From a virus: a stretch of 64,000 nucleotides of DNA. How positions within the stretch are numbered: position 1 is the stretch's first letter; each line of letters opens with the position of its first letter. This document shows, in pieces, positions 10,665 through 64,000 of this stretch. The notes under the pieces are model-generated. The model had not been told where the DNA came from, searched no databases, and saw nothing but the letters and a program-made list of their open reading frames with translations. The stretch spans positions 32,001 through 96,000 of IMG/VR virus record IMGVR_UViG_3300045988_100686. One strand, given 5' to 3'. Made by a program: the position numbers and the translations under genes.

Positions 10665-10694
10665 TTTTATTTTAGTTAAAGGAGGAAAAAATAA

Positions 10695-10946: not shown

Positions 10947-10968
10947 GCATAAAACGGGGGAAATTACA

Positions 10969-11550
10969 ATGAAAACACACTTAAAGACACTAATAGCAAT
11001 TATCTGTGGATTAATTATCTGTGTAGTAGCTTTCAACCTTGTGAATAATAATTCAACACCAAAAGTGATACCACCAAAGGTACTACAAGATAACTTAACA
11101 AATTCCCAGATATTTTGTATGATGGGATCATATAATTTGCGTGATGAATCGTGGCACGATGACGTGATCTTGTCACCTAAGAATTATCAATTCGTAGAAA
11201 AAGACGAATTTATTAGATATCTTAGAACAGCCAAGTCATCCTCTATCCTAAACGCAGATGAACAAACCACCTTAAGAAATGACATAATTAAACTTGCTAA
11301 GTATGCTGGACGTCAAGTAACTACTAAAAACAAAGATGACCATGAGGTTACTGATTATTTTTATCTCTATGCTAATGCTGGACAGCTCTATCAAGTAACA
11401 TTTAAAGACGGTTGTATATTTAAGGCAGTCCAAACTACAGAAAAGGGATACATCTCGTTTGAGATAGCCCCTAACTTAATGTTATCACATGAATGGAAAG
11501 CGTCACCTAAATTATTACACAAATTAAACAACGAATACTGCGGCTGGTAG
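10969..11550 (+). CDS. membrane-anchored or secreted hypothetical protein
   Basis: N-terminal TM/signal segment LIAIICGLIICVVAF. SD GGGGGAA upstream. Confidence 0.55.
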   Translation: MKTHLKTLIAIICGLIICVVAFNLVNNNSTPKVIPPKVLQDNLTNSQIFCMMGSYNLRDESWHDDVILSPKNYQFVEKDEFIRYLRTAKSSSILNADEQTTLRNDIIKLAKYAGRQVTTKNKDDHEVTDYFYLYANAGQLYQVTFKDGCIFKAVQTTEKGYISFEIAPNLMLSHEWKASPKLLHKLNNEYCGW

Positions 11551-11615
11551 GTATAATTTTAGTAAAGGCAGTGTCGTTATTCAGAGGCTTTTCACAAAAA
11601 GTACATAATTTAAAG

Positions 11616-11644
11616 TTGACATTTGCTGTGCTTCTTATTATAAT
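11616..11644 (+). promoter_or_regulatory. consensus promoter (TTGACA-17-TATAAT) driving the tRNA array
   Basis: TTGACA at 11616-11621, a 17-nt spacer, and TATAAT at 11639-11644, placed 30 nt upstream of the first tRNA. Confidence 0.6.
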
Positions 11645-11673
11645 ATATGTATGAAACACAGTTTATCTTTTAA

Positions 11674-11748
11674 GGTTCAGTAGCTCAGTGGAAGAGCAGG
11701 GTACTCATAATACTCTAGTCCTGGGTTCAAACCCCAGCTGAACCTCCA
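11674..11748 (+). tRNA. tRNA-Met (anticodon CAT)
   Basis: Acceptor GGTTCAG/CTGAACC, anticodon loop CTCATAA, T-loop GTTCAAACC, and an encoded CCA. Confidence 0.85.
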
Positions 11749-11775
11749 AATTTGTTAATCACATTTAACATAAAT

Positions 11776-11860
11776 GCCGCCTTGGTGGAATTGGCAGACA
11801 CGCTAGACTTAGGATCTAGTGGATAATTCCGTAAGGGTTCGAGTCCCTTAGGCGGCACCA
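11776..11860 (+). tRNA. tRNA-Leu (anticodon TAG), long variable arm
   Basis: Acceptor GCCGCCT/AGGCGGC, anticodon stem-loop CTAGA-CTTAGGA-TCTAG, a long variable arm, T-loop GTTCGAGTC, and CCA. Confidence 0.85.
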
Positions 11861-11862
11861 AT

Positions 11863-11940
11863 TTCGGGCGTTGGTGTAATTGGTAACACTTCGGTCTCCA
11901 AAACCGACATTCTAAGTTCGAGTCTTAGACGCTTCGGCCA
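11863..11940 (+). tRNA. probable tRNA-Trp (anticodon CCA), acceptor stem not cleanly resolvable by hand
   Basis: D-arm GTGT-AATTGGTA-ACAC, anticodon arm TCGGT-CTCCAAA-ACCGA, T-arm CTAAG-TTCGAGT-CTTAG, and a 3' GCCA. I could not pair a canonical 7-bp acceptor helix. Confidence 0.45.
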
Positions 11941-11941
11941 T

Positions 11942-12018
11942 CGGGATGTAGCGCAGTTTGGTAGCGCACGTGATTTGGGATCACGGTGTCGCAGGTTCAA
12001 ATCCTGTCATCCCGACCA
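11942..12018 (+). tRNA. tRNA-Pro (anticodon TGG)
   Basis: Acceptor CGGGATG/CATCCCG, anticodon arm CGTGA-TTTGGGA-TCACG, T-loop GTTCAAATC, discriminator A and CCA. Confidence 0.85.
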
Positions 12019-12022
12019 CTAT

Positions 12023-12098
12023 GCTCCTGTGGCGCAATTGGCAGCGCAAGTGTTTTGTAAACATTAGGTTGTAGGTTCAAGTCCTATCAGGAGCTCCA
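12023..12098 (+). tRNA. tRNA-Thr (anticodon TGT)
   Basis: Acceptor GCTCCTG/CAGGAGC, anticodon arm AGTGT-TTTGTAA-ACATT, T-loop GTTCAAGTC, and CCA. Confidence 0.85.
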
Positions 12099-12101
12099 TA
12101 C

Positions 12102-12191
12102 GGAAAGGTGGTCGAGTGGTTTAAGACAGCAGTCTTGAAAACTGCCGAAGACACAAATCTTCCGTGGGTTCAAATCCCACCCTTTCCGCCA
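12102..12191 (+). tRNA. tRNA-Ser (anticodon TGA), long variable arm
   Basis: Acceptor GGAAAGG/CCTTTCC, anticodon arm GCAGT-CTTGAAA-ACTGC, a long variable arm, T-arm GTGGG-TTCAAAT-CCCAC, and CCA. Confidence 0.85.
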
Positions 12192-42865: not shown

Positions 42866-43804
42866 TTAGTCTTCGTAACCAGCGCCAGTCAGTTTAATCT
42901 TTGCGACACCGTTATCGTTACCAATTGAAATACCAATGTTCTCCCACAGATGGAAGGTAAACTTGTTGGCTTTGGTTTCCATAAATGCTTTAACGTCAGT
43001 CAGGACGTCAAATACACCAAGGTATTCAGGGGTAGAGAACAGATAAATGTGACCCGGTTTTACAATTTCATTCTTGATGGAACGAACGAAGTTGTAACCC
43101 AACAGCTTAGTATAGCTGTAACCATTATGGATGATATCTTCCATAACCTGAGAACCAGCTGCAGGCTGTTGCAGTTTCAGCAGGTCCATCCAGTCAGATT
43201 CACTGATCAAAATAGTGCCGATAGGTACTTGACGTTTAACCAGGAGTTTCAGGCCTTCAGCCAGGATAGACGGAGTAAACGGACCAGCTGCAGTGTAAAC
43301 TGCGGTACCAGCTTTTTCCGCTTCTTTCTTCTTCAGAATATCATCCACAGTAGAAATAAATAGTTTATCTTCTGTAGCCTGAATATCTTTCAGATAGTTC
43401 TCTTGGATAATTTGTTTAATAGGTACTCTGTAGGTCATCAACTCTTCAGTGAGTTTGTGGAATTCCTCAGACTGAATATGAGTATAGAATACCTGGAATT
43501 TATCACCGATATAGTATCTCTGTTGAGCTTGCTCACTGAAAGTTACAGGGTAAGCCTCAGATACTTTATCTTTGTGGATAATACGCATCGGGGAATCTGA
43601 ATCAACAGCTTGGTCCAGATCTGCTGCGGTAATTTGTTTCGGGGGAATAATTTTACGAGTGAAGGAACCTTCACGGATTTTTACACGGCAGAACTCAGTA
43701 GCACTACCTGCAACCTTTTCCAAACCTTCCTGAGAAGAAATCTTTTGGACAAAGGAAGTGTTGTATAACATTGCATCATTTGCGTTGTCGAGAATTACGC
43801 TCAT
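42866..43804 (-). CDS. putative major capsid protein
   Basis: 312 aa with markedly high-expression codon usage, sitting immediately after a decoration-like gene and downstream of a scaffold-like gene. Assigned by gene order and composition only. Confidence 0.45.
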   Translation of the reverse strand: MSVILDNANDAMLYNTSFVQKISSQEGLEKVAGSATEFCRVKIREGSFTRKIIPPKQITAADLDQAVDSDSPMRIIHKDKVSEAYPVTFSEQAQQRYYIGDKFQVFYTHIQSEEFHKLTEELMTYRVPIKQIIQENYLKDIQATEDKLFISTVDDILKKKEAEKAGTAVYTAAGPFTPSILAEGLKLLVKRQVPIGTILISESDWMDLLKLQQPAAGSQVMEDIIHNGYSYTKLLGYNFVRSIKNEIVKPGHIYLFSTPEYLGVFDVLTDVKAFMETKANKFTFHLWENIGISIGNDNGVAKIKLTGAGYED

Positions 43805-45987: not shown

Positions 45988-47910
45988 TTATTTCATGGTT
46001 CTATCAATCAATGCATTATCTATTGCATTTCCTGCTAGACTTGATACTAGTGATTGACCTCTTCCTCTGAATATTATACCGTTAAGTAATGTTGTGCCAA
46101 CATTTGCAACGGTGTCTCCAAATGCTGCCAATTTTTCATGAAATTCTACGTTTCCTGCTGTTTTTAACATGCTCTGCTCTACATTAGAATGTTTCTGTAA
46201 TGCAATATTTACTGCTACAGGAGCAACTAGAGATATAATATCATCTGTTTCTGCTGCACATTTCTCTAGATTATTATAGTTATCTGTGGATATAAAATGA
46301 CTCATCACAAATGGTATCACAGGTTCGTTTATACTCGATGTTTTCTGCATCTGTAGTTCCTGCGGGGTTGGTGTTGCTTTCTTAGAGTGGAGTAAAGCTG
46401 CTGCTGCCGTTAAAATTGCCCAAACCTTAGGATCAGTTAGTAGCTTCTTGACCGTCGGTACATTATTGTACGCTGCGTAAAGTGCCCCAAGAGTATATCC
46501 AGTTACTGCAGGGTTTAGTGGCGGCTTTTTGTTTCGCAAGTACATCTCATACTGCTGAGGTGTCATTTGTACTGGCACAGTAGCATAGGGATCTTGTTGA
46601 ACTAAAATTGTTCCCGGCACTTGATCTCCTGCGATATTGGTACAGCTCTCCGGAATGCGAACTTGTCCGAAAGTTAGAGCAGGATTCATAGCCCATGCAG
46701 TACTCGGAATATCAATGTTTAATGCAGCTAACTTCTCTACACTGTCCATTACTGCAGGAAGGAAAGATGAACGCTTAATTAGGAATGGTTCAACTAATCT
46801 GCTTACCTGCTTTATGGTTTCTCCTCCAGGATTTGATACTGGTTTCGCTGCCAATAATCCTGACAATACTTCTCCAAATGAATCCAAGGGCAGGCCACGT
46901 TGAACGATAATTATTCTTGTAGCTTCACGAGGTTTCAACTGGATGGCATTTGCGAATAAACTCTTTAAAATGTCTGGGAAAGAATATCTTAATGCAAGAT
47001 GATCAAGCAGCGGAATAGGCAAATCTGGTTGCATTTCTTTTATCACCGGGTTGACCCCTGCTATTCCTGCGTTCATTACTCTTACTGCACCAGAGTTTAT
47101 TCGTTTAATCATTGCCAACTTATTAAAACTTGGTGTTGACGCTGTTTTTAGGAGTTCGTCGTCTTCAATATCAAAAGTACGTGCTACCTGAGCAACTGGA
47201 ATACAATTACCTAGATTTTCAAAGTAATCTGCACATTCATCTTGTAGACTGCGTTGATCTGCGCTGGCTACTTTTGATAACACATATGCAATTCTGTCAG
47301 CACGGTGGCGCACGATAGAAATATCAAAGAACGTTGGATTATAATTTATCATAAACGGTTGTTTGCCGTCGGGGTAAATCTTTTTCTTGTCATACTTTAT
47401 ATGAGAACAGTAGTCTGATTTTCTACGTGCTTTATTGCCACAGATGGAGCACACATCATAGGCTACTCTGCAACCCATACTTACTTCAAGCTGTTCCCCA
47501 GCTTCCTGCCTGCGAACAAACTCTGCACCCTTGATTTTATCAATGGCTAGAATAAGTTCTACGCGATGCATTTTTGGATTGTACCATGAGAATACTACTT
47601 TGCCATAATCTTGACTAGTAGGCTTATTGTCATGCTCTTTAAATACTTTTGCTGTTGTAACAAAGGTGTTGTGTCTAGCAATCAGGTCCTTTTCGGGGAA
47701 GTAGTCACCGTTAATATTGCAACCATAGTATTCACCAGCGCCCATAGCTATTACATGCAAATACATGAAACCTGGATCAGGGGTAAAAGTAGACAAGAAT
47801 TCTGTTATTTCAGGACTCTGTCCTCGTAGTTCATCAAAGTTCGCAAGTTTTACTCTTGCTTCACCTGTATTCTCAAAGGTACTTCCTAGAGAATATTGTT
47901 TACCAAGCAT
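45988..47910 (-). CDS. large head-module protein (possible portal or prohead component) with Cys cluster
   Basis: 640 aa containing CRVAYDVCSICGNKARRKSDYCSH. Shares the FFD-S/T-V-R-RADR-AY motif with the protein at 49921-50691. Confidence 0.4.
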   Translation of the reverse strand: MLGKQYSLGSTFENTGEARVKLANFDELRGQSPEITEFLSTFTPDPGFMYLHVIAMGAGEYYGCNINGDYFPEKDLIARHNTFVTTAKVFKEHDNKPTSQDYGKVVFSWYNPKMHRVELILAIDKIKGAEFVRRQEAGEQLEVSMGCRVAYDVCSICGNKARRKSDYCSHIKYDKKKIYPDGKQPFMINYNPTFFDISIVRHRADRIAYVLSKVASADQRSLQDECADYFENLGNCIPVAQVARTFDIEDDELLKTASTPSFNKLAMIKRINSGAVRVMNAGIAGVNPVIKEMQPDLPIPLLDHLALRYSFPDILKSLFANAIQLKPREATRIIIVQRGLPLDSFGEVLSGLLAAKPVSNPGGETIKQVSRLVEPFLIKRSSFLPAVMDSVEKLAALNIDIPSTAWAMNPALTFGQVRIPESCTNIAGDQVPGTILVQQDPYATVPVQMTPQQYEMYLRNKKPPLNPAVTGYTLGALYAAYNNVPTVKKLLTDPKVWAILTAAAALLHSKKATPTPQELQMQKTSSINEPVIPFVMSHFISTDNYNNLEKCAAETDDIISLVAPVAVNIALQKHSNVEQSMLKTAGNVEFHEKLAAFGDTVANVGTTLLNGIIFRGRGQSLVSSLAGNAIDNALIDRTMK

Positions 47911-52777: not shown

Positions 52778-53290
52778 TCATCCTTTTGGCATCTGTTTTA
52801 CTGCGTCAGCAATTGTTTTATATAGAAGAGCTCCAGTTGCTACATTACCTGCAGTAGCTAGCGCTCCAGCGGCACGGGTCTCATTCTTTGTAATCCCAAG
52901 ATCCCTAAAGTTTAATGTACCAGACCCATTCTGGATTCTTTGCTTGATTGTCTTGTAAGTGATTAAGAATGATGGTGCTGAAGCAATAAGTGATGCTACT
53001 TGTAGTAAATGTGGTTTTTGACGTGCACTAATAAGTTGTCCAATGTCAATCGTTGTTCTAATTGCACCTTTGATAGCCAAAGCAGCGACAAGAACAAAGA
53101 TTTTACGAATAACAAGCTCTTTTTTGCTCAGCTGAAATCCATCTGTTATCTCTTCTTTTGACATTACTGTATGATCTGGGATTAAGTAAATAGCTGCTAC
53201 ACAGACTACTAGGGGAATACCCTTGCTTATTAAAAACCGTTTTACTTGTTCTCCAATTATATTTGCGAGCATTTGTTCGTCTCTGCCCAT
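52778..53290 (-). CDS. membrane protein (multi-TM)
   Basis: IPLVVCVAAIYLI and FVLVAALAIKGAI hydrophobic segments. Confidence 0.5.
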   Translation of the reverse strand: MGRDEQMLANIIGEQVKRFLISKGIPLVVCVAAIYLIPDHTVMSKEEITDGFQLSKKELVIRKIFVLVAALAIKGAIRTTIDIGQLISARQKPHLLQVASLIASAPSFLITYKTIKQRIQNGSGTLNFRDLGITKNETRAAGALATAGNVATGALLYKTIADAVKQMPKG

Positions 53291-55992
53291 TAGTACCTCC
53301 CGTCTTTACCTTTTCCGAATCCTGTTCCGCGTGCGTAGGAAGGAATAGGATTATAAGAGTGTAATGGACTACGTGATTGTGTAGCAGCGTTATCAATAAG
53401 CTTCTCTTTTAAGTATTTAAATCCAAAGTTAGCCATCCAATCATGTTTGTAGGTTGGGGCTTTATTGGTACCCTTCTGGAAGGGAACAAACTTTGGTGGA
53501 CGCTTGCTAGGATTCTTGCGAATATCTGCTGCTAGCTGGTTATAGTCTACTACGTCTCCTTCAATGAGATCATCAAAATCTCCCGGATCAATAATCTGTA
53601 CGTAGTTTATTAATCCACGAGCGATTACCTCAAAGTTTTTCTTTACACTATCGAGTCCTGCACCATGGTACAGAGTATCAAGACTCTGAATAAACTGCTT
53701 GCGACCAGTATCTATGCCTTTGTAAGGTACAACCTTGCTAATGTTTAGAATACCGTCTGTTAATGGGTCGCCAGCTTCTACTCTATCCCCAACCTTTACT
53801 TTCAGTGTTCTTGTTGGCGGTATGTAGTACTTCTTACGGCCTATGTATACGTTCTGTCCGCCTGCAGGTGCTGCCTGTATGTTTGTGATTGTTCCAGATA
53901 CTTCAGTAATAACTGCTGCACCACTAAACTTAGTGGACATATTAAAGAACGCCTTTACCGTGTTAAAACCAATTGCCTCACCTGCTGCAGTACCTGCTGT
54001 ATGTTTAGATGACAGGCCTAACTGTGTAAAAGGTTCTGAAATAGCGTGAGCAGATACTACACCTACATTTTCACCGATATCAGGGAATTTCAATTTCTCG
54101 TTGTACCCGTAGCAATATTGGCATACACCATCATGTGCTTCACATGTAGCTGGGCTACGTACCTCAACCTGAGGAACTCCACGACGTTTTAATTGTTCAT
54201 AATAGTTGGCATCGATAAACTTGTTTGTCTTCGCCTCAACACGGTTAATGATATTCTTAGTATCGTTAATGTCACGTACTAAACCACGTTTACATCCGCA
54301 ATCCTTTTTGGTAACTACGATATCAAGTACGTTGCCAATAAGTTCTTTTGCTAATGCGCCTGCAGGAGCTACGGATAGCTTTGCACCAACAGTACCTTTA
54401 CGGGTGCCATAGGATGATACAAAGTAATCGGCAGGACTTAGACCCTCGTTGTATGATGTGTGAATCAAGGAAGGAATAAGTTTATCTTTAGGATCTGCTA
54501 CTACTGTAGGACTAGTTATGATCTGCATTACTTGTCCTTTTGACCCCTTGGAGCCTGTATATGCCCACTGCTGGAATGTGTTGTCAGTTGCCTCATCTGT
54601 GAGTTTCTGTGCAAATGCCTGAGCTTTACGTAATATCTTGCCTTTTTCTGCATCGACTTGTTTGGGTGTAAGATCTTTGCGTTTGTCAATATCTGCCAGC
54701 TCTTGGTCAATCTTATTGAAGTATATGTTACGCTTTTTCTTCAACTCATCCATATCGAAGTCAGTTGCTTTGTAAGATACACCTAATCTATAGGCAAATA
54801 ATGCTCCCAACTCTTTTAGACCATCAGCAATCCTGGTATATTCTTTTGGCCATCTCTGTCCTACCTGGGTAAGAAGGCCGCTCATTACGGATTTATTCCA
54901 CACTTTGTCATAATTACGCAATGGCATTGGGAATAGCTCATTGATAAGTACTGCACCTGCAGTTGTCTTAAACTGTCTGTATTGAACAGGGGCGTCTGGC
55001 TTAATCATTCCCATGCGGATATTTTCGTGAAGCTGTTTAACGTTTTGTACAGGAGTGAATCGTGTACTTTTATCAAACGTTGGGAGAGTCTTTGTTGCTG
55101 CAAATAATCCAAACACTGATTCCTGCTGTGGTAACATCATAGGTCCCATGTTGCGGGGTGAGAATAAGTTGTGACTTGGAGTCATTTTCTCCAGTGCTTC
55201 TAACCTTGCTTCTTCCGTTGCAGGTACATGAAGCTGCATGGTATCATAAACTAGAATACCGTTGGCTATGAAAAGTGGAAACTCCGGGACCGTGAAGTCG
55301 TAAGTTATTTCTTCTCGGTCAACTTCTTCTACAGAAGTCACCTCATCCCATACATATGGCAGGTTTAAATATGGATTTGCTGGGTTTACCTTAGCTACAT
55401 CACTGATCTGTACTAGTGCGCCATTCTCTGGTATTCTTACTGCGTTGTAGTCCAAGTATAAACGTGTGTTTACTATTTTGCAAAAGATACCCTGACGTGC
55501 TAGTATTACTTTAGCTAATTCTAGCTCTTGCTTATCCTTTACCTTCCAGTACATACTAGGATTTTCTGTGTTATCTGTGGTATCAAAGTGGACCATTGCT
55601 AACAATGCCGTGCCAAGATCATCTGTTGATAAATTTAGCATATAATATGAAAACTTGTTTGGTTTAAAGTTATCCATTGCAAACTTACGCATAGCTTTTG
55701 CTTGTGCAGTTTTCTTTGGAATATATGATATCATACGCATTATAGGCACGAATTTACCAAGTGCATCCTGGGGAGGTAATGGAGCAAAAAATGTTTCACT
55801 TCCGTTTGTTGCCAATGAGTGGTCATCGGTTACTGTGATCTCGTAGCCACAAGAGGTGCAGATTCTGTACATCTTCCCATGCTCTGTGTGTACACTTCGC
55901 TCAGTGTAATCCATGAATTCATTGGTGTTTGTAGCAGGGCAATAGGTTAATACTTTTCCCTTAACTACAGTTGAGTTACTTTGGGTACTCAT
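53290..55992 (-). CDS. RNA polymerase beta-prime-like protein (C-terminal-half homolog) with N-terminal intein-like element
   Basis: Three strong beta-prime motifs. (1) LHVPATEEARLEALEKMTPSHNLFSPRNMGPMMLPQQESVFGLF matches the VHVPLSLEAQLEAR...SPANGEP...PSQD..LG segment after the catalytic loop. (2) The bridge-helix region TGSKGSKGQVMQI...SYNEGLSPADYFVSSYGTRKGTVGAKLSVAPAGALAKELIGNVLD matches SGARG...FREGL..[33 protein letters not shown]. (3) The trigger-loop region AISEPFTQLGLSSKHTAGTA matches GEPGTQLTMRTFHTGG. In the N-terminal 250 aa, C18 plus ITVTDDHSLATNG (block B, TxxH-like) and TYDFTVPEFPLFIANGILVYD|T (blocks F/G) resemble intein splicing motifs. SD GGAGG upstream. Confidence 0.7.
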   Translation of the reverse strand: MSTQSNSTVVKGKVLTYCPATNTNEFMDYTERSVHTEHGKMYRICTSCGYEITVTDDHSLATNGSETFFAPLPPQDALGKFVPIMRMISYIPKKTAQAKAMRKFAMDNFKPNKFSYYMLNLSTDDLGTALLAMVHFDTTDNTENPSMYWKVKDKQELELAKVILARQGIFCKIVNTRLYLDYNAVRIPENGALVQISDVAKVNPANPYLNLPYVWDEVTSVEEVDREEITYDFTVPEFPLFIANGILVYDTMQLHVPATEEARLEALEKMTPSHNLFSPRNMGPMMLPQQESVFGLFAATKTLPTFDKSTRFTPVQNVKQLHENIRMGMIKPDAPVQYRQFKTTAGAVLINELFPMPLRNYDKVWNKSVMSGLLTQVGQRWPKEYTRIADGLKELGALFAYRLGVSYKATDFDMDELKKKRNIYFNKIDQELADIDKRKDLTPKQVDAEKGKILRKAQAFAQKLTDEATDNTFQQWAYTGSKGSKGQVMQIITSPTVVADPKDKLIPSLIHTSYNEGLSPADYFVSSYGTRKGTVGAKLSVAPAGALAKELIGNVLDIVVTKKDCGCKRGLVRDINDTKNIINRVEAKTNKFIDANYYEQLKRRGVPQVEVRSPATCEAHDGVCQYCYGYNEKLKFPDIGENVGVVSAHAISEPFTQLGLSSKHTAGTAAGEAIGFNTVKAFFNMSTKFSGAAVITEVSGTITNIQAAPAGGQNVYIGRKKYYIPPTRTLKVKVGDRVEAGDPLTDGILNISKVVPYKGIDTGRKQFIQSLDTLYHGAGLDSVKKNFEVIARGLINYVQIIDPGDFDDLIEGDVVDYNQLAADIRKNPSKRPPKFVPFQKGTNKAPTYKHDWMANFGFKYLKEKLIDNAATQSRSPLHSYNPIPSYARGTGFGKGKDGRY

Positions 55993-56063
55993 TAAATTTC
56001 TAAACCTCCAATCTAATCTAGGTTTCTAAAGATCATTATACCGGGAAATTATGTAACAAAAAA

Positions 56064-56108
56064 TCGTAAAAGTAATGGTATAAGTATTATGTAGAAGAAT
56101 ATAATTAC
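56064..56108 (+). promoter_or_regulatory. divergent-region control element: AATGGTATAAGTAT extended -10-like box plus 9-bp perfect palindrome AGAAGAATA-N8-TATTCTTCT
   Basis: The TGGTATAAGTAT box also occurs at 10572 and 22825. The palindrome lies at 56083-56108, between the divergent virion and Ubl modules. Confidence 0.4.
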
Positions 56109-56149
56109 GTATTCTTCTATAAAAATTAAGGGGGGAGACGACTCTGTCA

Positions 56150-56509
56150 ATGATTCCTTTAAGTCAAATTTATAAGAGGGAGAAGATTATTCTTACAATA
56201 AAGAATAGTAAAGATCTTATTAAGGAAGTATCCATTAATGGAGTAAACTTACTTAGTAAGACTTTATCACTTATTGTTAATCCTGATTTAAACTGTGACC
56301 TCTTCCTGTTGAGAACCACAAAGTCAGGAGGAATAGTCTTCGAGCAATCAACAAAAGGGAATATTAGAATTACGATCTCCTCTAATATTTCCCTTGAATC
56401 AACCACAGATAGACCTACAACAAATTTCATAAGGGTATCTCAACGAGAGAAAAAGAATAGGCAGTGGACAATCTGTGAGCGATTCTATACCTTGGAGATC
56501 AATAGTTAA
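56150..56509 (+). CDS. hypothetical protein
   Basis: 119 aa with AAGGGGGGAG upstream. AT-rich and of low complexity. Confidence 0.4.
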   Translation: MIPLSQIYKREKIILTIKNSKDLIKEVSINGVNLLSKTLSLIVNPDLNCDLFLLRTTKSGGIVFEQSTKGNIRITISSNISLESTTDRPTTNFIRVSQREKKNRQWTICERFYTLEINS

Positions 56510-56528
56510 ACGAAAGAAGGATTTTATT

Positions 56529-56759
56529 ATGAACACTAATCTGACCCGCATTGTATTTATCTCTGGCCAAACTCAACCGTACGTATTCAGCCCGGACGAC
56601 GGCGCAAATGATCTTACTGACGCTCAGATCTTGGAATGCATCGCTGCAACTGATCCGTCTGTTAACACTTCTGCTCGCCTGGCTTGGCAGCAAACCCAAT
56701 ACAATGGTGAGCAAGTTCTCTCCGCAACCTATGTGCCGCAAGCACAAACCAAAGGTTAA
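56529..56759 (+). CDS. ubiquitin-like protein (76 aa, C-terminal Gly) - candidate Ubl of a conjugation system
   Basis: The ATG at 56529 has AGAAGGA 7 nt upstream. 76 aa ending ...QAQTKG then stop. The N-terminus MNTNLTRIVFISGQ echoes the ubiquitin beta-1 strand. GC-richer, high-expression codon usage. The ORF track's 56475 start overlaps the upstream ORF. Confidence 0.5.
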   Translation: MNTNLTRIVFISGQTQPYVFSPDDGANDLTDAQILECIAATDPSVNTSARLAWQQTQYNGEQVLSATYVPQAQTKG

Positions 56760-56952
56760 TCTGCTGGGTTTCTCTAATTAATTGATCTAGCCTTGTTAGG
56801 CTACGATTACTGTGTAGCATTTTCTGGTAAAAATTTAATATTGAATTAGAATATTATGATGGCATAATCGTTCTAAAGACAATTGCATATTGAAAGACCT
56901 AGATAGTCGGTAATAGGTGAACAGAAAGACTTAATCTTCTACAAGTTATACG

Positions 56953-57004
56953 CAAGGGGTCTATGTAGTCTTCGGACTGCATAGATTCCCTAAAATTTTT
57001 TTTT
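56953..57004 (+). terminator. hairpin with UUCG tetraloop followed by T-run
   Basis: GGGGTCTATGTAGTC-TTCG-GACTGCATAGATTCCC, then TAAAATTTTTTTTT. Confidence 0.5.
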
Positions 57005-57027
57005 AGTACTTTGAAAGGAGGATAATA

Positions 57028-57312
57028 ATGGGTGTTCAGTCTGAAATAGATAAAGTTATAGGAGAACTTCCTGAGATTAAACCTCTCAGCTTTTATATTG
57101 AAGAGTTACGGAAGTATTTAGACACAACGACTCCTCTTGAGGAAATGTTTAAAAAGCCTTTCCCAGAAGAACTGATACGTAAATTTCTAGCTGCAAAACA
57201 AGATAATTCACAGAGAAGAAATGAGCTGCTCGTAAAGCAGGTCTGGGAGATTGTAGTTGATCTTCCTGTTGCACCTGTACCAGAATCTAGTAAAAGGAGG
57301 AGAGTAATGTGA
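57028..57312 (+). CDS. hypothetical protein (first gene of the E2-JAB-E1 operon)
   Basis: SD AAAGGAGG upstream; 94 aa; stop overlaps the next start (ATGTGA). Confidence 0.5.
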   Translation: MGVQSEIDKVIGELPEIKPLSFYIEELRKYLDTTTPLEEMFKKPFPEELIRKFLAAKQDNSQRRNELLVKQVWEIVVDLPVAPVPESSKRRRVM

Positions 57313-58793
57313 GTAATGAAAATATGGCTTCAGGCTATATAAATTATATTGCTGATGCTAGTACCTCAGTAATTGGACGTAATAGAGGGAAGTGGGAATT
57401 GTCACAAAAGTATGTTCAGTATTTAGATGATACTACTGAATATGCACTTGGACTAATATTTGGACCTTATCAGCTTAATCATTTTGGTTGCTACGTAGCA
57501 ACTAGAATATTTTCTTCTATTCTTACTCCTGGTAAGAAAAACGGGTTAATGACACCCAATGAAGCTCGTGGAGCTATTGAAGATAATCTTTACTGTGATG
57601 TGAATTTGCCGACATTGTTTTTCAATGCCTTGGTGCTCTTAAAATTCATGCAGTTCGGAGACGATACTTTTGCTTCCCCTACAGCTTTCAAGTATATAAA
57701 ACGAGTCCAGACAAGTGGATCCCGAGGAACTATTGTTAACATGAAAATTATTCCATTTGTATCTGGGCTTGTTACTCCAGAGACAATGCTTAAGGGAGTA
57801 AAGATCCTGTGTGCAATAGCTGCATTAAAACCAGAGGTATATGAAGCAGTTCAAGAAATATACAATGATATTAATAAAGAATTACTCAGAAATATAATGG
57901 TAAATGCATCTGAATTGCTTGACCTTAGGATAGAGAGTGGCAAAATTGCAATACCTATGTTTAAACTTGGTGCTCCTGGTATCCCGCTCGAACTTGTACT
58001 CGATGATTATAAGGAGTTTTCACTTAAGCTCGAAGAACTTGCCTCTAGAATTTTAGAGGCGTGCAATGGTAGCTTAGAAGATTTCCTTCAAGCTATATTT
58101 GCTCTTGACATTGATAATATAACTACCTATAAGGAGGAAAACACAATGATGGTTGTAACTGAAATACTGAGGAATCTGATTAATAAAGGTATACTGATTA
58201 CTCGTGATGGCAGACTGCTGTCCATCAACATTACTGATGAAGATACTGTTCAGGTTAATCCTTTCAATAATAATGATGCGGAACGCCCGACTATTGCAAA
58301 TTTGACCATTGAACGTAACGGTACTACAGAGGAAATCATTACTCTGAAGGATGATAGATTAGAACATATTATTGATACCGCTCAAAACGTTCTGAATTCT
58401 AGTGTAAACAATGCTATCAACAATGACAGAAATGTCAGAGTACAGCGTGCTTCTATGGCATCTGCTACACCTGCTACACCGGAAATGCGTAGAAATGCTG
58501 ACGGGTCTATTTCTGTGCATAGAACAGTTGGCTCTTTCCGTATGTGGGCCCCAGCTACTCCTGCAGAGGCAGCTCAATTTGAGCGTACACAGCAACAACA
58601 AGCTCAACAAGATCAGCTTGCAGCTGGTGAGGATACAGAACGGGATGCCATTGTTGAAACCGTAGAAGATAGTCCTGAAGATATTGTCATGGTTTCTGTT
58701 GTGGAAAACAATAGTGTGCGTGTAAGACGTATGACTCGTGAAGAAGCTGAAGATCAAGAACTTGCTATCGTAAGTGTTATTGAAAGACGGTGA
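57309..58793 (+). CDS. hypothetical 494-aa protein in the Ubl-conjugation operon (possible adaptor/target-recognition component)
   Basis: GTG start with GGAGG 8 nt upstream. The C-terminus is acidic and Gln-rich. Confidence 0.5.
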   Translation: MSNENMASGYINYIADASTSVIGRNRGKWELSQKYVQYLDDTTEYALGLIFGPYQLNHFGCYVATRIFSSILTPGKKNGLMTPNEARGAIEDNLYCDVNLPTLFFNALVLLKFMQFGDDTFASPTAFKYIKRVQTSGSRGTIVNMKIIPFVSGLVTPETMLKGVKILCAIAALKPEVYEAVQEIYNDINKELLRNIMVNASELLDLRIESGKIAIPMFKLGAPGIPLELVLDDYKEFSLKLEELASRILEACNGSLEDFLQAIFALDIDNITTYKEENTMMVVTEILRNLINKGILITRDGRLLSINITDEDTVQVNPFNNNDAERPTIANLTIERNGTTEEIITLKDDRLEHIIDTAQNVLNSSVNNAINNDRNVRVQRASMASATPATPEMRRNADGSISVHRTVGSFRMWAPATPAEAAQFERTQQQQAQQDQLAAGEDTERDAIVETVEDSPEDIVMVSVVENNSVRVRRMTREEAEDQELAIVSVIERR

Positions 58794-58800
58794 TTATACA

Positions 58801-59607
58801 ATGGCTATGAATATTAAAAAGATAGAATTTGAAGACAATTCTGCTGTAGTAACCATGAGGGATCCTGACGAACTTATTGGTCTTGTACGTAAAAGAGTGT
58901 CGATTGATGCTCTAATTCAAGCCCTTGGAAAGATTAGTACATCCCAATCTATGCTTATTCCTCCTAACTGCAGGGGCATTTGGGAGACTAAAAACAATAA
59001 GTATTTCCTGTTTATCATCCCGGCACACATGGGCAAGACTGCCGTAGTGTGGTATAAAACTGACACTGATAACTATGGAGCTCCGGGTAGTAGTACTAAG
59101 TTGGAGAACCAGCCTGAACATATTCAGTCAATGTATGAAGACTCAGAAGACAGTGACTACATTAGAGTGTTCAACACTCCATTCCCAGATGCGTGTGTGT
59201 TGATTAAAATGACAAAGGCTGGTAGCAATAAACTTATGTTTAATGATATCAGAGCATGGTCTATTAAGAGTACTATGCTTCCTCTAGATAAAACAGCAGT
59301 ATACCGCTGGCCGTTCTTTAATATGTATGGTGATGCAAGAGTATGCATTGGTGATATCCCCAGAGAGTATCCTAATGTAGAATCTGTTGCTAGTATTATT
59401 AATTACCTATATATTGGCGTAGGTAACCATGATCTTGATCATACTCCATATGTAATTCCTGATAATAAGTTTGGAATCAAAAATTCTTTTCAGTTGGTCA
59501 AATACCTTGATGAAAACAAGTTGACTGTATTTCCAAGGGAGTTACTGTGTAGTTTTGGTACATCGATCATTGAAACAGTAGAAAATATTGTTGCTAATGG
59601 AAATTAA
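58801..59607 (+). CDS. E2-like (UBC-fold) ubiquitin-conjugating enzyme homolog
   Basis: FFNMYGDARVCIGDI...VESVASIINYLY aligns with the UBC core FHPNVYADGSICLDIL...VSSILTSIQSLL; the catalytic Cys sits in RVCIG. The ORF track starts at a GTG at 58774. Confidence 0.5.
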   Translation: MAMNIKKIEFEDNSAVVTMRDPDELIGLVRKRVSIDALIQALGKISTSQSMLIPPNCRGIWETKNNKYFLFIIPAHMGKTAVVWYKTDTDNYGAPGSSTKLENQPEHIQSMYEDSEDSDYIRVFNTPFPDACVLIKMTKAGSNKLMFNDIRAWSIKSTMLPLDKTAVYRWPFFNMYGDARVCIGDIPREYPNVESVASIINYLYIGVGNHDLDHTPYVIPDNKFGIKNSFQLVKYLDENKLTVFPRELLCSFGTSIIETVENIVANGN

Positions 59608-59621
59608 TGGAGGTAAAAATA

Positions 59622-61472
59622 ATGGCAGTTCCAAACCAATATAATAAATATGCTTCTTTATATACTGTGCCCAAAAAGCCAGAACTCACAGACGTCCAAA
59701 AACGTCTTATTGAACGTATGCAACGTAGTCGCTGCAAAATCTGGGAGTCCTATGCTGCGTATACTGCAGCTGATGAATCTGATAAGAAACCAGACAATTA
59801 CTTCCCAACTAAAACTGGTTGGGGTATTGCGCGCAAGCGTGTTCTCAATGGTAATAGTGTGGAGTTCGTTACAACTGTTCCAGAATGTCCGCTGGTTGAT
59901 GAAATCCAACCCAAAGTTGTTCTTGATATTCATAATAAAATCCCTGGATCTCTGCTCCAGGAGATTCTTGCAAACTTTAACAAAGTATGCGAGGACTCTA
60001 ATAATGAGTGTGCTGCTCAGATTTACCGTGAGCGAGATGGTGAAAGAAAGTATTTCATTTATTACCCTGAACAAAAGGTGTCTACTGCTCAAGTAACCTA
60101 TACTCATGATCCACAGCTCATGGAACTCGCAAAGGCATATGACCTCATCATGGAGCTGCATTCCCATGATTCTATGGGTGCATTCTGGTCTGGCACAGAT
60201 GACAGTAATGAGAACACTTGTGGATTCTACATGGTAATTGGCAGATTTAACTCTTCTGTAGTTGAGTACAAATGCCGTGCAAAACTTGATAAACTGTATG
60301 CTGATTTTAATTGCTCTGAAATCTTTGATTTCGGTGACACACCTGAAGAACAAATCCTTACTCGTGAAAACTTTATTGCTCCGAATGATGAACTGGATAA
60401 GAAGATCACAAAAGAAAGCCTTACTTATTATAATGGTGCGTATCAAGCTTGTTATGACATGTGGAACTATGGTGGTTATTCTTATCAAGGATACAATGAC
60501 TATAATTATGGTAAATCAACTAAGAAATCTCAGAGATACCTTGCTAAAACAGAACTGGCTGCACGTAAACGCTTGATGGCTAAATTGAAGAATGCTCCGG
60601 AATCCATCTTCCCGGAAGACGCTCTTTATAATGAGCTCTGGGATCATGCAGACTATATCAAAGCCAGAAAACGTTGGGAATGCTGTGGGTACTATGATAA
60701 CCAGGAGGCCATGAAGGAATGCTGGAAACGAATCCCAAAAAACCAGGCAGGCGCGGAAGAGGAGGTGAGTCAAGACGCCGTCGTTGCCTCTGATTATGTA
60801 ACTCGTATGAGCAAGTGCTACTCTGCAGATGGGTTCCAAAATACCCATACAGCTGGTGGAGTTGCCACTGGCATTGAAACTGCGGAATATCTTGCTGGTA
60901 ATGGAGATGAGGCAGCTGCACGTTATGGCACGCTTCCGGGCAAGATTCAACAATACAGTAATTTTGATTTAGATCTTGGCACTGCTGATGTGAATGACCA
61001 AGACTACAATGATAATCTTAATATGGCTGTGGCTAGCAGAACTGAGTCCCAGTCTAACATTGAGACATTCTTGCAGGAAGGAATGGGCGGGGTCCGTGAA
61101 GAGACTGAAAACAAATTTATTGCTAATGTAATGAATATTGCGTTTCTTCACACCCCGTCAGCCAGTATCAACGTCGGAGTGTTCTGGGAGTTGCTTACAC
61201 CGGTTGAGAAAACTAGACTGGCAAAAGCATTCCACTGCTCTGTTATGGATCTTGCTACTCTGCTTATTGGCAGCAGCGCTGTTGTTGCATCTCCTGATGT
61301 AGCAGAGTTCCTGTATAAGTGCATCCTTGGTGATGCTAAGTATGTAGAATGTAAGCTTGGTCTTATTACCAGTAAGGTCATGGCTGAAAAGCCGTCTACT
61401 GCTGCTCAATTTGTAGCACTCATCCATGAGATGCTTGAGGTTGAAAGAGATGTTAAGGAGGCAAAGGAATGA
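59622..61472 (+). CDS. JAB/MPN (JAMM) metallopeptidase-domain protein (deubiquitinase-like)
   Basis: JAMM motif ELHSHDSMGAFWSGTDD (HxHx7Sx2D) with an upstream Glu. The ATG at 59622 has TGGAGGT 8 nt upstream. The stop overlaps the E1 start (ATGA). Confidence 0.7.
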   Translation: MAVPNQYNKYASLYTVPKKPELTDVQKRLIERMQRSRCKIWESYAAYTAADESDKKPDNYFPTKTGWGIARKRVLNGNSVEFVTTVPECPLVDEIQPKVVLDIHNKIPGSLLQEILANFNKVCEDSNNECAAQIYRERDGERKYFIYYPEQKVSTAQVTYTHDPQLMELAKAYDLIMELHSHDSMGAFWSGTDDSNENTCGFYMVIGRFNSSVVEYKCRAKLDKLYADFNCSEIFDFGDTPEEQILTRENFIAPNDELDKKITKESLTYYNGAYQACYDMWNYGGYSYQGYNDYNYGKSTKKSQRYLAKTELAARKRLMAKLKNAPESIFPEDALYNELWDHADYIKARKRWECCGYYDNQEAMKECWKRIPKNQAGAEEEVSQDAVVASDYVTRMSKCYSADGFQNTHTAGGVATGIETAEYLAGNGDEAAARYGTLPGKIQQYSNFDLDLGTADVNDQDYNDNLNMAVASRTESQSNIETFLQEGMGGVREETENKFIANVMNIAFLHTPSASINVGVFWELLTPVEKTRLAKAFHCSVMDLATLLIGSSAVVASPDVAEFLYKCILGDAKYVECKLGLITSKVMAEKPSTAAQFVALIHEMLEVERDVKEAKE

Positions 61473-62974
61473 AGAAAACTGTGTTAGCTATCGGGCCTGC
61501 TAGTCCGTATGTGAATCTCTTGGCAACTGTTCAAGAGCATTTAAATGACTTAAGTGTCATTAAACCTAATTTTAATAACCTTCATATCATTCAGCTCGGT
61601 GCTGGTGGTACTGGCGGTTATGTAGCGTATGAAATACTTCGTATGCTTGGTAATATTCCAGAGGTGTTAAAACCGTATATCCATTATACACTGATAGATG
61701 GTGATACGTATGAGCCAAAGAATATTGGCAGACAACTTTGCTGTGAAGATGATATCGGTAAGTATAAAGCTCAGGTCCTCGTTGAAGAGTATGGAGAACT
61801 CTTTGGTGTTACTCCAGACCAAGCGTCTCATATCGATGAGTATTTTACTGCTATCAGCCAGCTGGCTGTTCTTCCAAAATTCCCTCTGCCAATCTGGTCT
61901 GTATTTGTAGACGATGAAGTAGAAAAGTTCTTCAAAGACTCTGAAGCTGCAGTTGCACTTAATTCTAAACAGCCACATATCAATGCAACAGCTACGTCAT
62001 TTATCATTATTGACTGTGTTGACAAAAATGCTCCGCGTAAACTATTACATGATTACTTTACAGATATCTCCAGTTTGCCCAGTACTTTGGCGCGTCTGAA
62101 CTATTGTTGCAATGCTGTTCCTGACTGTGATAAGATCACTGCTACTGGGCAGCAAATCATTGCACATAACAACGGTGGTAACAGCCTGCTTGGAAGTATG
62201 TACGGTGTCACCCCGATTCGTGATATCTACATCATCTCATCCGGCAATGGCAAGTATACTGGCCAAGTATCCTGGGGAAGAAAAAGCTTCCTTGGTAACT
62301 CCAGTGGTTCTATGCACTACAAGGATATCTTTGGTGACAAGGATGTATCTTCTATTATTGGACCTAAGATTAATACGAATGATGAAGTAGAGGCTGTCGA
62401 TATTACTCCGGGTATGACAGACGCTGATGTAAACCAGTTGCGGCTTAAAGCATTGGCTGAGGAGTATTTTACACCGTCTAATGTAAAGAGATTCCAGGAT
62501 AATGTATTCCAAGAAATTGTGGATCCTGCTACTGGCAGATTGTCAAATGGTTACATTAAGTCTATCCCGATTCCAATTACTAACCCAGAGGAACCTGAGC
62601 TTGAAACTGGACACCCGATGCTCAAAAACATGAATATGTTCATGTCTGCTTTTATGTCTACACCTACTCCGTATGACAGGTTCCCGGAGCTTACAGACCT
62701 TGAGATTGATGCAAGAGAAGAGGCGATGAGCTGCGCGGAGCGTGCAGAACATAATGTACAGTCTATCAATGCTAATAAAACTGCTGCAGCTCTTGTAGTA
62801 AATTACTTCACATCTATCTTTAATGGTATGTATATGTTTGAAAAGGAAGTACCCGTTCTTACTACTGAGACTACACGTTTCAACATATTAACGGGCGAGT
62901 ACTCTTCTGACCCGATTACTACGGATTCTCTGCGTATCCCTGTGGAAACACGCAAAAGAGTTCGCGCATTTTAA
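61469..62974 (+). CDS. E1-like ThiF/MoeB-family adenylyltransferase
   Basis: Nucleotide-binding loop HIIQLGAGGTGGYVAYEI and YTLIDGDTYEPKNIGRQL, which matches the ThiF/MoeB D-D-V-SNL-RQ pattern. SD GGAGGCAAAGGA upstream. Confidence 0.75.
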   Translation: MKKTVLAIGPASPYVNLLATVQEHLNDLSVIKPNFNNLHIIQLGAGGTGGYVAYEILRMLGNIPEVLKPYIHYTLIDGDTYEPKNIGRQLCCEDDIGKYKAQVLVEEYGELFGVTPDQASHIDEYFTAISQLAVLPKFPLPIWSVFVDDEVEKFFKDSEAAVALNSKQPHINATATSFIIIDCVDKNAPRKLLHDYFTDISSLPSTLARLNYCCNAVPDCDKITATGQQIIAHNNGGNSLLGSMYGVTPIRDIYIISSGNGKYTGQVSWGRKSFLGNSSGSMHYKDIFGDKDVSSIIGPKINTNDEVEAVDITPGMTDADVNQLRLKALAEEYFTPSNVKRFQDNVFQEIVDPATGRLSNGYIKSIPIPITNPEEPELETGHPMLKNMNMFMSAFMSTPTPYDRFPELTDLEIDAREEAMSCAERAEHNVQSINANKTAAALVVNYFTSIFNGMYMFEKEVPVLTTETTRFNILTGEYSSDPITTDSLRIPVETRKRVRAF

Positions 62975-62980
62975 GCTAAC

Positions 62981-63016
62981 GGTGGGCTCTTTGTGAGTCC
63001 ACCTTTTATTTTTTAT
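62981..63016 (+). terminator. Rho-independent terminator after the E1 gene
   Basis: GGTGGGCTC-tttgt-GAGTCCACC followed by TTTTATTTTTT. Confidence 0.55.
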
Positions 63017-63029
63017 GGAGGTATGCTAT

Positions 63030-64000
63030 ATGCAAATCCCAAGTTGGTTTATGGATAAGTATTTTCCAGAAGGTAGCGCACGCTCTGCTATAGTCTGTGA
63101 TGACGGAGAATTAAAATCATTCTTACGAATGGAAGCAGATGATAAGAATGCTGGGTGCGAAATCTTTGGTGATTATAGCTACGTGGAAGATATCATGGCA
63201 GTAATGTGTGAACCTGTTGTGGCCCATGAATTATCACTGCCAGCGCTTGAAGACTTAGTTCCTGATAAATATCATATATATAGGGTTATTCCACCATATT
63301 ATCTGCAGTTGTGGTACAAATATCAGCTGTCAAATAGGGGCATGACAAGTAGCTATACAGAAGATAAATTTAAGGTTGATTTTATTACTGCGTATATCAT
63401 TGAGTTCCCATGGGAACAGATGTCAAGTTGTAGCAGAAGAAAAACGAGATCAAAAAATGATGTAGACCACTGTATGTATGACAAAAATTTATTTAATGCT
63501 TGGTGTTATCAAAAAGATACTATTGAGGCTGTAGCACAGTTTCTTAATATCTGTAGAATCCCTGCATCTGAGGAAGAGATTGCGAAACTATTTATATCTA
63601 GGTTTATCTGGTATAGCTTTGTGACTCAATTGGATCTGCTGGATAGCATAGAAATAGGGGAATGGCTTGATTTTTATAATGGAGCACCGTATAGATCAAG
63701 ATGCGTTGATAGAAACTATGAGTTGAATTCTAGAAAAAGTTGTGGCCACTGGGGTGGTCTCATGGCTGCAGGGATTAAGATAAGCCGTATCCTGGAATAT
63801 CCTAGAAATGCTGATTCAGTAAAATCTAGAGTCTTGCAAAGGGCTAGGCTCTTAGTTGTAATGTTTTGTATGTCCCAGTCACCCAGAACGGTGAAGCTGA
63901 TCATTGAAGGTCTTATGACGTTTTCTGCGTCAATATCAGGTACATGGATGTTAAGCATCATTGAACCACTGGTAAGGGAGGTGGAGCCTTCATGGCTAAA
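63030..64000 (+). CDS. hypothetical protein, 3'-truncated by window end
   Basis: ATG at 63030 with GGAGG 8 nt upstream. The frame stays open to position 64000. Confidence 0.5.
   Translation, partial: MQIPSWFMDKYFPEGSARSAIVCDDGELKSFLRMEADDKNAGCEIFGDYSYVEDIMAVMCEPVVAHELSLPALEDLVPDKYHIYRVIPPYYLQLWYKYQLSNRGMTSSYTEDKFKVDFITAYIIEFPWEQMSSCSRRKTRSKNDVDHCMYDKNLFNAWCYQKDTIEAVAQFLNICRIPASEEEIAKLFISRFIWYSFVTQLDLLDSIEIGEWLDFYNGAPYRSRCVDRNYELNSRKSCGHWGGLMAAGIKISRILEYPRNADSVKSRVLQRARLLVVMFCMSQSPRTVKLIIEGLMTFSASISGTWMLSIIEPLVREVEPSWL

Follow-up and report, generated by a model that had tools for sequence, protein, structure and literature searches.

Organization of the seven-gene cassette

We analyzed a 64,000-nucleotide (nt) stretch of viral DNA (positions 32,001 to 96,000 of IMG/VR record IMGVR_UViG_3300045988_100686; the whole stretch is called the window below), in which seven co-oriented plus-strand genes (56150-62974) form a predicted ubiquitin-like conjugation cassette. 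The genes encode, in order, a 119-amino-acid (aa) protein, a 76-aa ubiquitin-like protein (Ubl), proteins of 94 and 494 aa, an E2-like conjugating enzyme, a JAMM/JAB metallopeptidase (JAB), and a ThiF-type E1 enzyme. An earlier sequence-only reading of this region had claimed a complete Ubl, E2, JAB, and E1 cassette beside a phage virion module, and this claim is upheld by profile matches, catalytic residues, a predicted β-grasp fold, and synteny. That reading counted five to six genes, missed the conserved 119-aa gene that precedes the Ubl gene (56150-56509), and wrongly placed E2 second, ahead of the 94- and 494-aa genes.

The gene for the β-rich 119-aa protein (g0) is assigned as the first cassette gene by synteny and conserved residues. 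It is followed by the Ubl gene (56529-56759) and, after a 268-nt gap (56760-57027), by the genes for the 94-aa protein with its basic, hydrophobic C-terminus (57028-57312), the mostly α-helical, rapidly diverging 494-aa protein (57309-58793), the 268-aa E2 of the Prok-E2_D / PRTRC_B type (58801-59607), the 616-aa JAB (59622-61472; ATG start with a GGAGG ribosome-binding site), and the 501-aa E1 (61469-62974). An alternative JAB start, the ATG at 59607, would give 621 aa. The 94-aa gene has a strong ribosome-binding site and overlaps the 494-aa gene by 4 nt, and the five genes from the 94-aa gene through E1 overlap or lie ≤14 nt apart. Translational coupling, claimed for the operon from the sequence alone, fits the layout of these five genes and not that of the Ubl gene, which is set apart from them by 268 nt and a terminator. 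A second strong intrinsic terminator, with a 9-bp GC-rich stem and a T-run (62981-63013, plus strand), ends the operon, and the next gene begins at 63030.

The terminator that separates the Ubl gene from the enzyme genes (56956-57004, plus strand) consists of a 15-bp stem, a UUCG loop, and nine Ts, and is likely an attenuator. The gap that contains it folds better than shuffled sequences (z = -2.9) and holds two hairpins, the terminator itself and one found by folding at 56783-56809; a separate scan reported a different, overlapping hairpin with a weak T tail at 56800-56818. A hairpin and T-run follow the Ubl gene at the same position in the related loci L001, L005, L007, L008, L010, and L011 (L numbers are our handles for loci), and gaps of 117-697 nt follow the Ubl gene in relatives. 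The high-expression codon usage noted earlier for the Ubl gene was confirmed by its codon adaptation index relative to the capsid gene, which was 0.68 compared to 0.36-0.56 for the other ten genes tested. This top codon adaptation and the conserved terminator fit a Ubl that serves as a stoichiometric substrate in excess over catalytic enzymes.

Upstream, a divergent, AT-rich intergenic region of 157 nt (55993-56149) lies between the cassette and the minus-strand gene for RNA polymerase (RNAP) β', and presumably holds promoters for both directions. A sigma-70-like scan of this region did not rise above shuffled sequences, and the motif AGAATATWAT upstream of both transcription units gave two matches compared to 0.9 expected, which is not significant. 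An Rfam scan of 55900-64000 returned no match.

Predicted Ubl, conjugation enzymes, and accessory proteins

The 76-aa protein ends in AQTKG, with Gly76 already terminal (TKG-stop), as described in the sequence-only reading. Across 14 homologues, A72, Q73, K75, and G76 are invariant and are followed by a stop, Cys, or Ser-Lys, and a scan of 1.8 billion representatives recovered a family with members of 72-82 aa, every one of which closes with AQ[TSDN]KG, either terminal or capped by Cys or Ser-Lys. The β-grasp fold for which modelling had been suggested emerged when AlphaFold2 was run on the family alignment: the model has a predicted local distance difference test (pLDDT) score of 84, a β-β-α-β-β core, and a flexible tail. 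On this model, the 76-aa protein is predicted to be a β-grasp Ubl.

Several related cassettes encode poly-Ubl precursors whose units end in GTKG. There are five units ending in AGTKG in L010 (4555-5430), five ending in QAGTKG in gp211 of Bacillus phage vB_BceM_WH1 (L094, 1778-2677), four in the Bacillus thuringiensis jumbo prophage pBtic235 (L011, 3969-4718), and three with acidic spacers in Vibrio phage D69 (L098, 3391-4182). Such precursors need a peptidase that cuts after Gly. Poly-Ubls of related cassettes match Pfam Prok_Ub (8.8e-6), and that of D69 matches a hidden Markov model (HMM) built from Prok_Ub-like sequences (4.5e-5). Multi-stretch matches of the Ubl to the large proteins P0125, P0131, P0133, and P0134 were set aside as spurious; the three of these that were read, P0125, P0133, and P0134, are ARM-like or Ig-like repeat proteins whose matches are to a low-complexity stretch.

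The consecutive genes for E2, JAB, and E1 all encode proteins that score at or above the Pfam gathering cut-offs: E2 matches Prok-E2_D (PF14460; 1.3e-5, 25.5 bits, cut-off 25), JAB matches Prok-JAB (PF14464; 8e-6, 26.2 bits, cut-off 25), and E1 matches ThiF (PF00899; 2e-7, 30.8 bits, cut-off 28.1). Nine E2 sequences all keep P171-x-x-N174-x7-C182-x-G184 and N209-x-D211, and among 61 distinct homologues, 58-61 preserve the first of these motifs (Asn in 60/61, Cys in 58/61). Cys182 is the predicted catalytic residue, with Asn174 eight residues upstream. The Asn-to-Cys spacing is the same as in the HPN...C of classical E2s and Phe replaces the His; the sequence-only reading had noted both the retained Cys and the substitution. 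The sole His near the E2 Cys, in an NHDL motif, is kept in 5/61 homologues, and the conserved element at this place is N-x-D.

In JAB, the HSHDSMGAFWSGTDD motif is intact, and E134, H185-S-H187, S195, and D198 (621-aa numbering) are invariant, as are K111, I112, and P113 in the N-terminal part, where no invariant Arg or Trp was seen. About 390 residues at the JAB C-terminus are variable. E1 is a single adenylation domain with two variable insertions and contains the motifs GAGGTGG and DGD..NIGRQ. Down to 23% identity, its invariant residues are GxGGTGG (44-50), D79, N85, R88, Q89, K100, D185, and R190, together with SGN (258-260), GQV (265-267), and S421-C422 in the sequence MSCAERA. From its position after the SG..GQ motif, we take Cys422 to correspond to the crossover-loop Cys of ThiF, MoeB, and Cap2. 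The JAMM motif, the two E1 motifs, and the extra regions of the large JAB and E1 had all been reported from the sequence alone and were all recovered here, the extra regions being poorly conserved. In a search of PDB sequences, the E1 profile matched MccB, UBA3, Uba4, and TcdA, and the E2 and JAB profiles had no match. Among the best E1-profile matches (6.7e-7) were the recently solved 'THIF-type NAD/FAD binding fold domain-containing protein' chains of 264-265 aa in PDB 9egb, 9egc, and 9egd.

Membership of E1 in the ThiF/MoeB superfamily, its best PDB matches (including MccB, TcdA, and Uba4), and a Ubl that is a minimal β-grasp like ThiS or MoaD would also suit a sulfur carrier of the ThiS/ThiF or MoaD/MoeB thiocarboxylate type, or ligation of the Ubl to a lipid, cell-wall, or nucleic-acid acceptor. 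We consider such functions highly improbable, however. Sulfur transfer needs no conserved E2 with Cys and Asn; none of the cassette proteins matched a rhodanese, cysteine desulfurase, or sulfurtransferase in Pfam and NCBIfam scans; poly-Ubl precursors together with a JAB fit conjugation; and the Ubl terminus is KG, not GG.

The remaining three proteins are conserved in position. The 119-aa gene adjoins the Ubl gene in relatives down to 24% identity, and the residues L4, S5, Q6, K18, K21, K25, G60, Q66, G70, and I72 of its product are invariant. The 119-aa protein had no match in Pfam, NCBIfam, or PDB; PDB profile matches to antibody light-chain N-termini (E 0.0025) were taken as chance, and an Hsp20-like match was obtained only for the L009 protein, which is not orthologous. 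The 94-aa gene is syntenic in all relatives, and its product had no family match in Pfam, PADLOC, NCBIfam, and PHROGs scans. The 494-aa protein is helical over its first ~290 residues (AlphaFold2 pLDDT 61) and has only 15 close homologues; no fold match and no absolutely conserved charged residues were found, and an alignment to the 458-aa PRTRC protein of pPUV-19 was uninformative and did not show homology. We consider this protein, which diverges fastest, the leading candidate for an adaptor, an E3-like factor, or a target.

Phage context, distribution, and selection

The phage context of the cassette is secure because the window encodes RNAP β', capsid protein, DNA polymerase, primase, helicases, a sigma factor, and eight tRNAs. 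On the divergent side of the cassette lie an RNAP β' fragment (53290-55992, minus strand) and then the head module, which includes an open reading frame (ORF) with a protease-like domain that matches a Salmonella phage Arash protein annotated as structural (45988-47910; Arash gp222) and an ORF with 35% identity to the Arash major capsid protein (42866-43804). The divergent neighbor is thus a virion module as in Arash, which agrees with the sequence-only reading.

INPHARED contained no close DNA relatives of the window, and an IMG/VR search with E1 alone returned nothing; loci were recovered only with an RNAP β' alignment. In this unbiased test, all seven of the IMG/VR loci that RNAP β' alone recovered (lowest β' identity 51%) contain the complete cassette, at the same position. 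E1 has 119 detectable homologues, mostly on metagenome contigs of 150-170 kb, many of them from human gut. All loci inspected, even those with E1 at 31-37% identity, show the same order: RNAP β' on the minus strand, followed by genes for proteins of ~120 aa, Ubl, ~95 aa, 480-640 aa, E2, JAB, and E1. Judging from these sequence comparisons, the cassette is a syntenic, vertically inherited core module of a lineage of large phages.

By RNAP β', the nearest cultured relatives of the window are Arash and D69. HMM matches in Arash identify gp248c as E2 (1e-6), gp247c as JAB (7e-36), and gp246c as E1 (5e-29), and an unannotated 66-aa ORF ending in RRTGTKG-stop heads this E2-JAB-E1 cassette (L096, 107-307; complement of 180513-180713 in OQ632216.1). 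The annotated gp251c, a hydrophobic 72-aa product in another frame over the 66-aa ORF, is probably a miscall. More distant versions of the cassette occur on other phage backbones: in L009 and L010, in pBtic235, in the Bacillus phages vB_BceM_WH1, Edson, and KLEB27-3, in D69 and its relatives, and in Arash.

At E≤1e-5, 517 PLSDB plasmids match a short-type E1, and the rows inspected are annotated as PRTRC-system or ThiF-family proteins. Another 73 loci on bacterial genome contigs (L021-L093) have a short-type E1, in most of them with a JAB immediately before it. Their sources are gut Oscillospiraceae and Ruminococcaceae metagenome-assembled genomes, Oscillibacter valericigenes An860, Clostridium leptum DSM 753, and cyanobacterial plasmids. 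The E2-like gene in many Clostridia loci is found not upstream of E1 but several kb downstream. A search of genome contigs for a host yielded these distant short-type cassettes only and none from the phage clade of the window.

All seven cassette genes are under purifying selection in a comparison of the window with L001, with ratios of nonsynonymous to synonymous substitution rates (dN/dS) of 0.06-0.33. The ratio was lowest for the Ubl (0.06), which is 100% identical (76/76) at dS 0.6, followed by JAB (0.08; 92% identity), E1 (0.08; 91%), E2 (0.12; 83%), the 94-aa protein (0.18; 93%), the 494-aa protein (0.19; 78%), and the 119-aa protein (0.33; 92%). The exact Ubl sequence was present on 140 contigs compared to 3 for E1 and 2 for the 494-aa protein, and this extreme conservation of the Ubl resembles the pattern of ubiquitin. 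Among relatives, E1 has diverged to 31-37% identity compared to 64-69% for RNAP β'.

Several other features of the window and its relatives were recorded. The eight tRNA genes are clustered at 8830-12191 (Gly-TCC, Gly-ACC, Met, Leu-TAG, Trp, Pro, Thr, and Ser). Other phage genes code for a sigma-70 region-2 protein (6161-7105, plus strand) and an SNF2-family helicase (815-2650, plus strand); a sigma-factor-like gene, with DnaN, follows the cassette of a Pseudomonas megaplasmid (L012), and an SNF2 helicase follows that of L009. The C-terminal RNAP β' fragment opens with a Hint/intein-like domain of ~250 aa, which has neither an N-extein nor a conserved N-terminal Cys and stops exactly where the β' motif '(D)xMxxHVP' starts. 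Six relatives share its blocks 'TVTDDHSLAT' and 'NGILVYD|T' without any change, and Pfam Intein_splicing matches in the orthologues range from faint to strong. This domain may represent an intein, either degenerate or limited to cleavage, in a split β' gene.

Affiliation, proposed role, and comparison with known systems

The sequence-only reading pointed to bacterial anti-phage Ubl operons and suggested searches with BilA-D/Bub profiles. A Bil-like or Bub-like affiliation was not supported: PADLOC 2.0.0 gave only a Cap2-type match for E1, and the nearest curated families are PRTRC. The best NCBIfam matches are PRTRC protein B for E2 (TIGR03737; 8e-6), PRTRC protein A for JAB (TIGR03735; 1.5e-10, matching only from position 74 on), and PRTRC ThiF for E1 (TIGR03736; 6e-17). 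These families make up the PRTRC cassette (TIGR03735-03738) of plasmids and integrative and conjugative elements (ICEs), which is equivalent to operon type 6d of Iyer, Burroughs, and Aravind 2006 (PMC1779556). Type 6d is known from B. cereus, B. thuringiensis, Bacteroides, proteobacteria, and cyanobacteria and comprises a Ubl, a rapidly diverging α-helical protein, an E2 that lacks the classical His, a JAB, and an E1. A canonical PRTRC locus on a Pseudomonas megaplasmid, with ParB, E, C (70 aa, ending in FGDKG), a 458-aa protein, B, and ThiF, is collinear with the phage cassette. The cassette thus shares with the 6d/PRTRC kind its parts and their order, a small Ubl ending in KG, an E2 without the HPN His, and an E1 without rhodanese, and the position and predicted helicity of the 494-aa protein fit the 6d helical protein between Ubl and E2.

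Differences from the 6d/PRTRC kind are also evident. JAB is 616 aa compared to about 190 and E1 is 501 aa compared to about 245, through variable regions; the phage cassette has the extra 119- and 94-aa genes; and its carrier is a phage lineage, in which it forms a core module. The 'absolutely conserved' His downstream of the 6d E2 Cys (Iyer 2006, PMC1779556) is absent from the phage E2s, and the conserved Arg/Trp of JAB-N are not evident in the phage JABs. No ParB partner was found among the 26 window proteins scanned with Pfam and/or the 16 scanned with PHROGs, the NCBIfam scan covering cassette proteins only, and the six cassette proteins scanned with PHROGs, the 119-aa protein not being among them, had no match. 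We therefore assign the cassette to the 6d/PRTRC kind as a divergent phage form, in view of its low scores, the weak Ubl match, the missing E2 His, the lack of a detected ParB, and the longer JAB and E1.

A function as defence cargo, in which the cassette would be an anti-phage or superinfection-exclusion system that tags proteins of competing phages in the manner of Bil, was weighed against these data. The characterized bacterial Ubl/E1/E2/JAB operons, Type II CBASS as well as Bil, all act against phages, E1 shows a weak match to Cap2-type CBASS models (2e-7 over about 90 residues), and short-type cassettes are common in gut Clostridia genomes. However, PADLOC, which presumably includes ISG15-like/Bil models, had no match for Ubl, E2, or JAB; membership in Bil and CBASS was rejected on this basis. 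Moreover, such cargo normally varies between close relatives, whereas strict conservation and synteny mark this cassette throughout its lineage, of which the characterized member, Arash, has no lysogeny-related genes. Defence cargo is therefore an improbable function.

We tentatively propose, with a confidence a little short of even, that the region is a phage-borne, vertically inherited 6d/PRTRC-type Ubl conjugation system that tags morphogenesis or virion-associated proteins late in infection. The gene set, catalytic residues, purifying selection, synteny, and distribution are observed and the fold is predicted, and from these we infer each chemical step and the target, with the order of steps taken from the family biochemistry of CBASS and Bil (Bil: PMC11601596). 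The 76-aa Ubl would be made in excess from its own terminator-bounded unit; in relatives with a Cys or Ser-Lys cap or a 3-5-mer poly-Ubl, JAB would first cut after the Gly of TKG. E1 would adenylate Gly76 and then hold the Ubl as a thioester on Cys422, from which it would pass to Cys182 of E2 and on to lysines of target proteins. The 494-aa helical protein, with the 94- and 119-aa proteins, would most likely select or constitute the target, and JAB would reverse conjugates and regenerate the terminal Gly.

The targets could quite possibly be virion-associated or other phage proteins, although we would not count on it; virion-associated phage proteins are slightly favored over host or defence proteins. 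The sequence-only reading had suggested either tagging of the phage's own virion proteins or counter-defence, and context lends some indirect support to the former. In the window and in L005, the cassette lies between the head and tail modules. The Arash cassette has tail/PAAR genes on one side and the end of the linear record on the other; the large terminase gene is at the record's start, so that cassette and terminase are neighbors only if the genome ends are joined. The cassette is thus found among morphogenesis genes in two distant sub-lineages, and embedding among late genes is conserved, with a different local arrangement in Arash. Proteins numbered Gp246-249 and Gp251 were detected by liquid chromatography-mass spectrometry of purified Arash particles (PMC10585845), and the penta-Ubl gp211 of WH1 was annotated 'virion structural protein' by its depositors. 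If we had to choose a role for this lineage, it would be the late-expressed tagging of phage proteins that take part in morphogenesis or are associated with the virion (and possibly injected), and not that of a sporadic defence island.

Several points weigh against this proposal. The Arash particle list comprises 116 proteins, including ribonucleotide reductases and kinases (PMC10585845), for which reason the detection is weak evidence for packaging; in addition, the gp numbering of that study does not map cleanly onto GenBank, and the basis of the WH1 label was not found. The profile searches suggested in the sequence-only reading supported the three enzymes and failed for the Ubl, which matches neither Prok_Ub (PF14454) nor PRTRC_C (TIGR03738) at E≤1, and an hhalign comparison of the Ubl with Prok_Ub-like sequences was weak (E 0.016, probability 3%), if in register including the terminal KG. 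The enzyme scores lie far under the NCBIfam equivalog cut-offs (25.4 compared to 131 bits for E2, 41 compared to 102 for JAB, and 61.8 compared to 145 for E1). Finally, the same type of cassette occurs beside ParB and replication genes in plasmids and ICEs that have no virion, which weighs against a virion-specific target, and the fast divergence of the 494-aa protein and E2 also fits an arms race with host proteins.

These last points bear on an alternative in which the Ubl is placed on host proteins, such as defence or replication factors, to inactivate or redirect them. The 494-aa protein would then be the specificity factor, and JAB might strip host Bil or CBASS conjugates. PRTRC cassettes in plasmids, ICEs, and plasmid-prophages lie beside ParB, RepA, and DNA polymerase, which fits the establishment of incoming DNA better than the building of virions; the L009 cassette sits in a replication module; the accessory proteins are fast-evolving; the 494-aa protein, E2, and E1 diverge much faster than RNAP β'; and characterized relatives act in phage-host conflict (PMC11601596). 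Nevertheless, a patchy distribution is usual for counter-defence genes, whereas 7/7 relatives have this cassette at a fixed position; it lies among late and structural genes in this lineage and not in an early region; and all dN/dS values are well below 1. Host takeover or counter-defence is thus a real but rather unlikely alternative to late tagging of phage proteins.

We further consider it possible, although doubtful, that the Ubl pathway is an obligatory part of the infection cycle in this lineage, by which we mean the gut-metagenome phages of about 150-170 kb, Arash, and D69. The pathway might tag the phage's own virion or morphogenesis proteins, or might load Ubl machinery or tagged proteins into the capsid, to be delivered to the next cell. 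If so, it would be the first described self-directed Ubl modification system of a prokaryotic virus and would provide the first function for the uncharacterized 6d/PRTRC family. This kind has been known from comparative genomics since 2006 and never characterized. Among types 6a-6e, it is the only one for which we found no functional study in the literature, and it is widespread on megaplasmids, ICEs, and jumbo prophages. A 2021 comparative survey of jumbo phages made no mention of Ubl, E1, E2, or JAB genes, and the core, inherited status of the cassette in a phage lineage and its presence in cultivable phages, including the unannotated Arash Ubl, appear undescribed in the searchable literature. 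The question is directly testable because the cassette is present in the cultivable Arash, which infects S. Typhimurium ATCC 14028; the Bacillus jumbo phages and pBtic235 offer further genetically tractable hosts for the cassette.

Operon type 6a is MBL. In later work, types 6b, 6c, and 6e correspond to Type II CBASS, Bil, and Bub, respectively (6e: PMC11601596). Type II CBASS shares with the phage cassette a ThiF-type adenylation domain with a crossover-loop-type Cys and a JAB as a trimming or reversing peptidase. However, Cap2 is an E2-E1 fusion, whereas the phage E2 is separate from E1 and is accompanied by a dedicated Ubl; Pfam and PADLOC scans of the cassette revealed neither a CD-NTase nor an effector domain. 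Bub likewise combines a Ubl, often multi-domain, with E1, E2, and a peptidase, and poly-Ubl forms occur in both systems. Bub uses an E2 Ser and an E1 Tyr to form oxyester intermediates, together with a DUF6527 protease (PMC11601596). In contrast, the phage E2 site has Cys in 58/61 homologues and the E1 Cys is invariant; these Cys residues and the lack of a Pfam DUF6527 match among the cassette proteins rule out membership in Bub. Tail proteins I (a Ubl) and K (JAB plus NlpC/P60) of phages lambda and T1 also pair a phage β-grasp protein bearing a C-terminal Gly with a JAB among morphogenesis genes (PMC1779556); they have no E1 or E2, and so no conjugation cascade, and the families are unrelated in sequence. 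Bil has separate Ubl, E2, JAB, and E1 genes as in the phage cassette, in which a Cys-based E1-E2 relay is likewise expected, and Bil tags a phage tail protein (PMC11601596). Unlike in Bil, the phage E1 is a single adenylation domain with insertions, and Bil is host-encoded and sporadic, whereas the cassette is phage-encoded and core. The current view of bacterial Ubl systems such as Type II CBASS, Bil, and Bub is that they serve the host as weapons directed at phages, whereas here the complete kit is viral and is a vertically inherited core module, which suggests that the phage uses tagging either for assembly or delivery or against its host.

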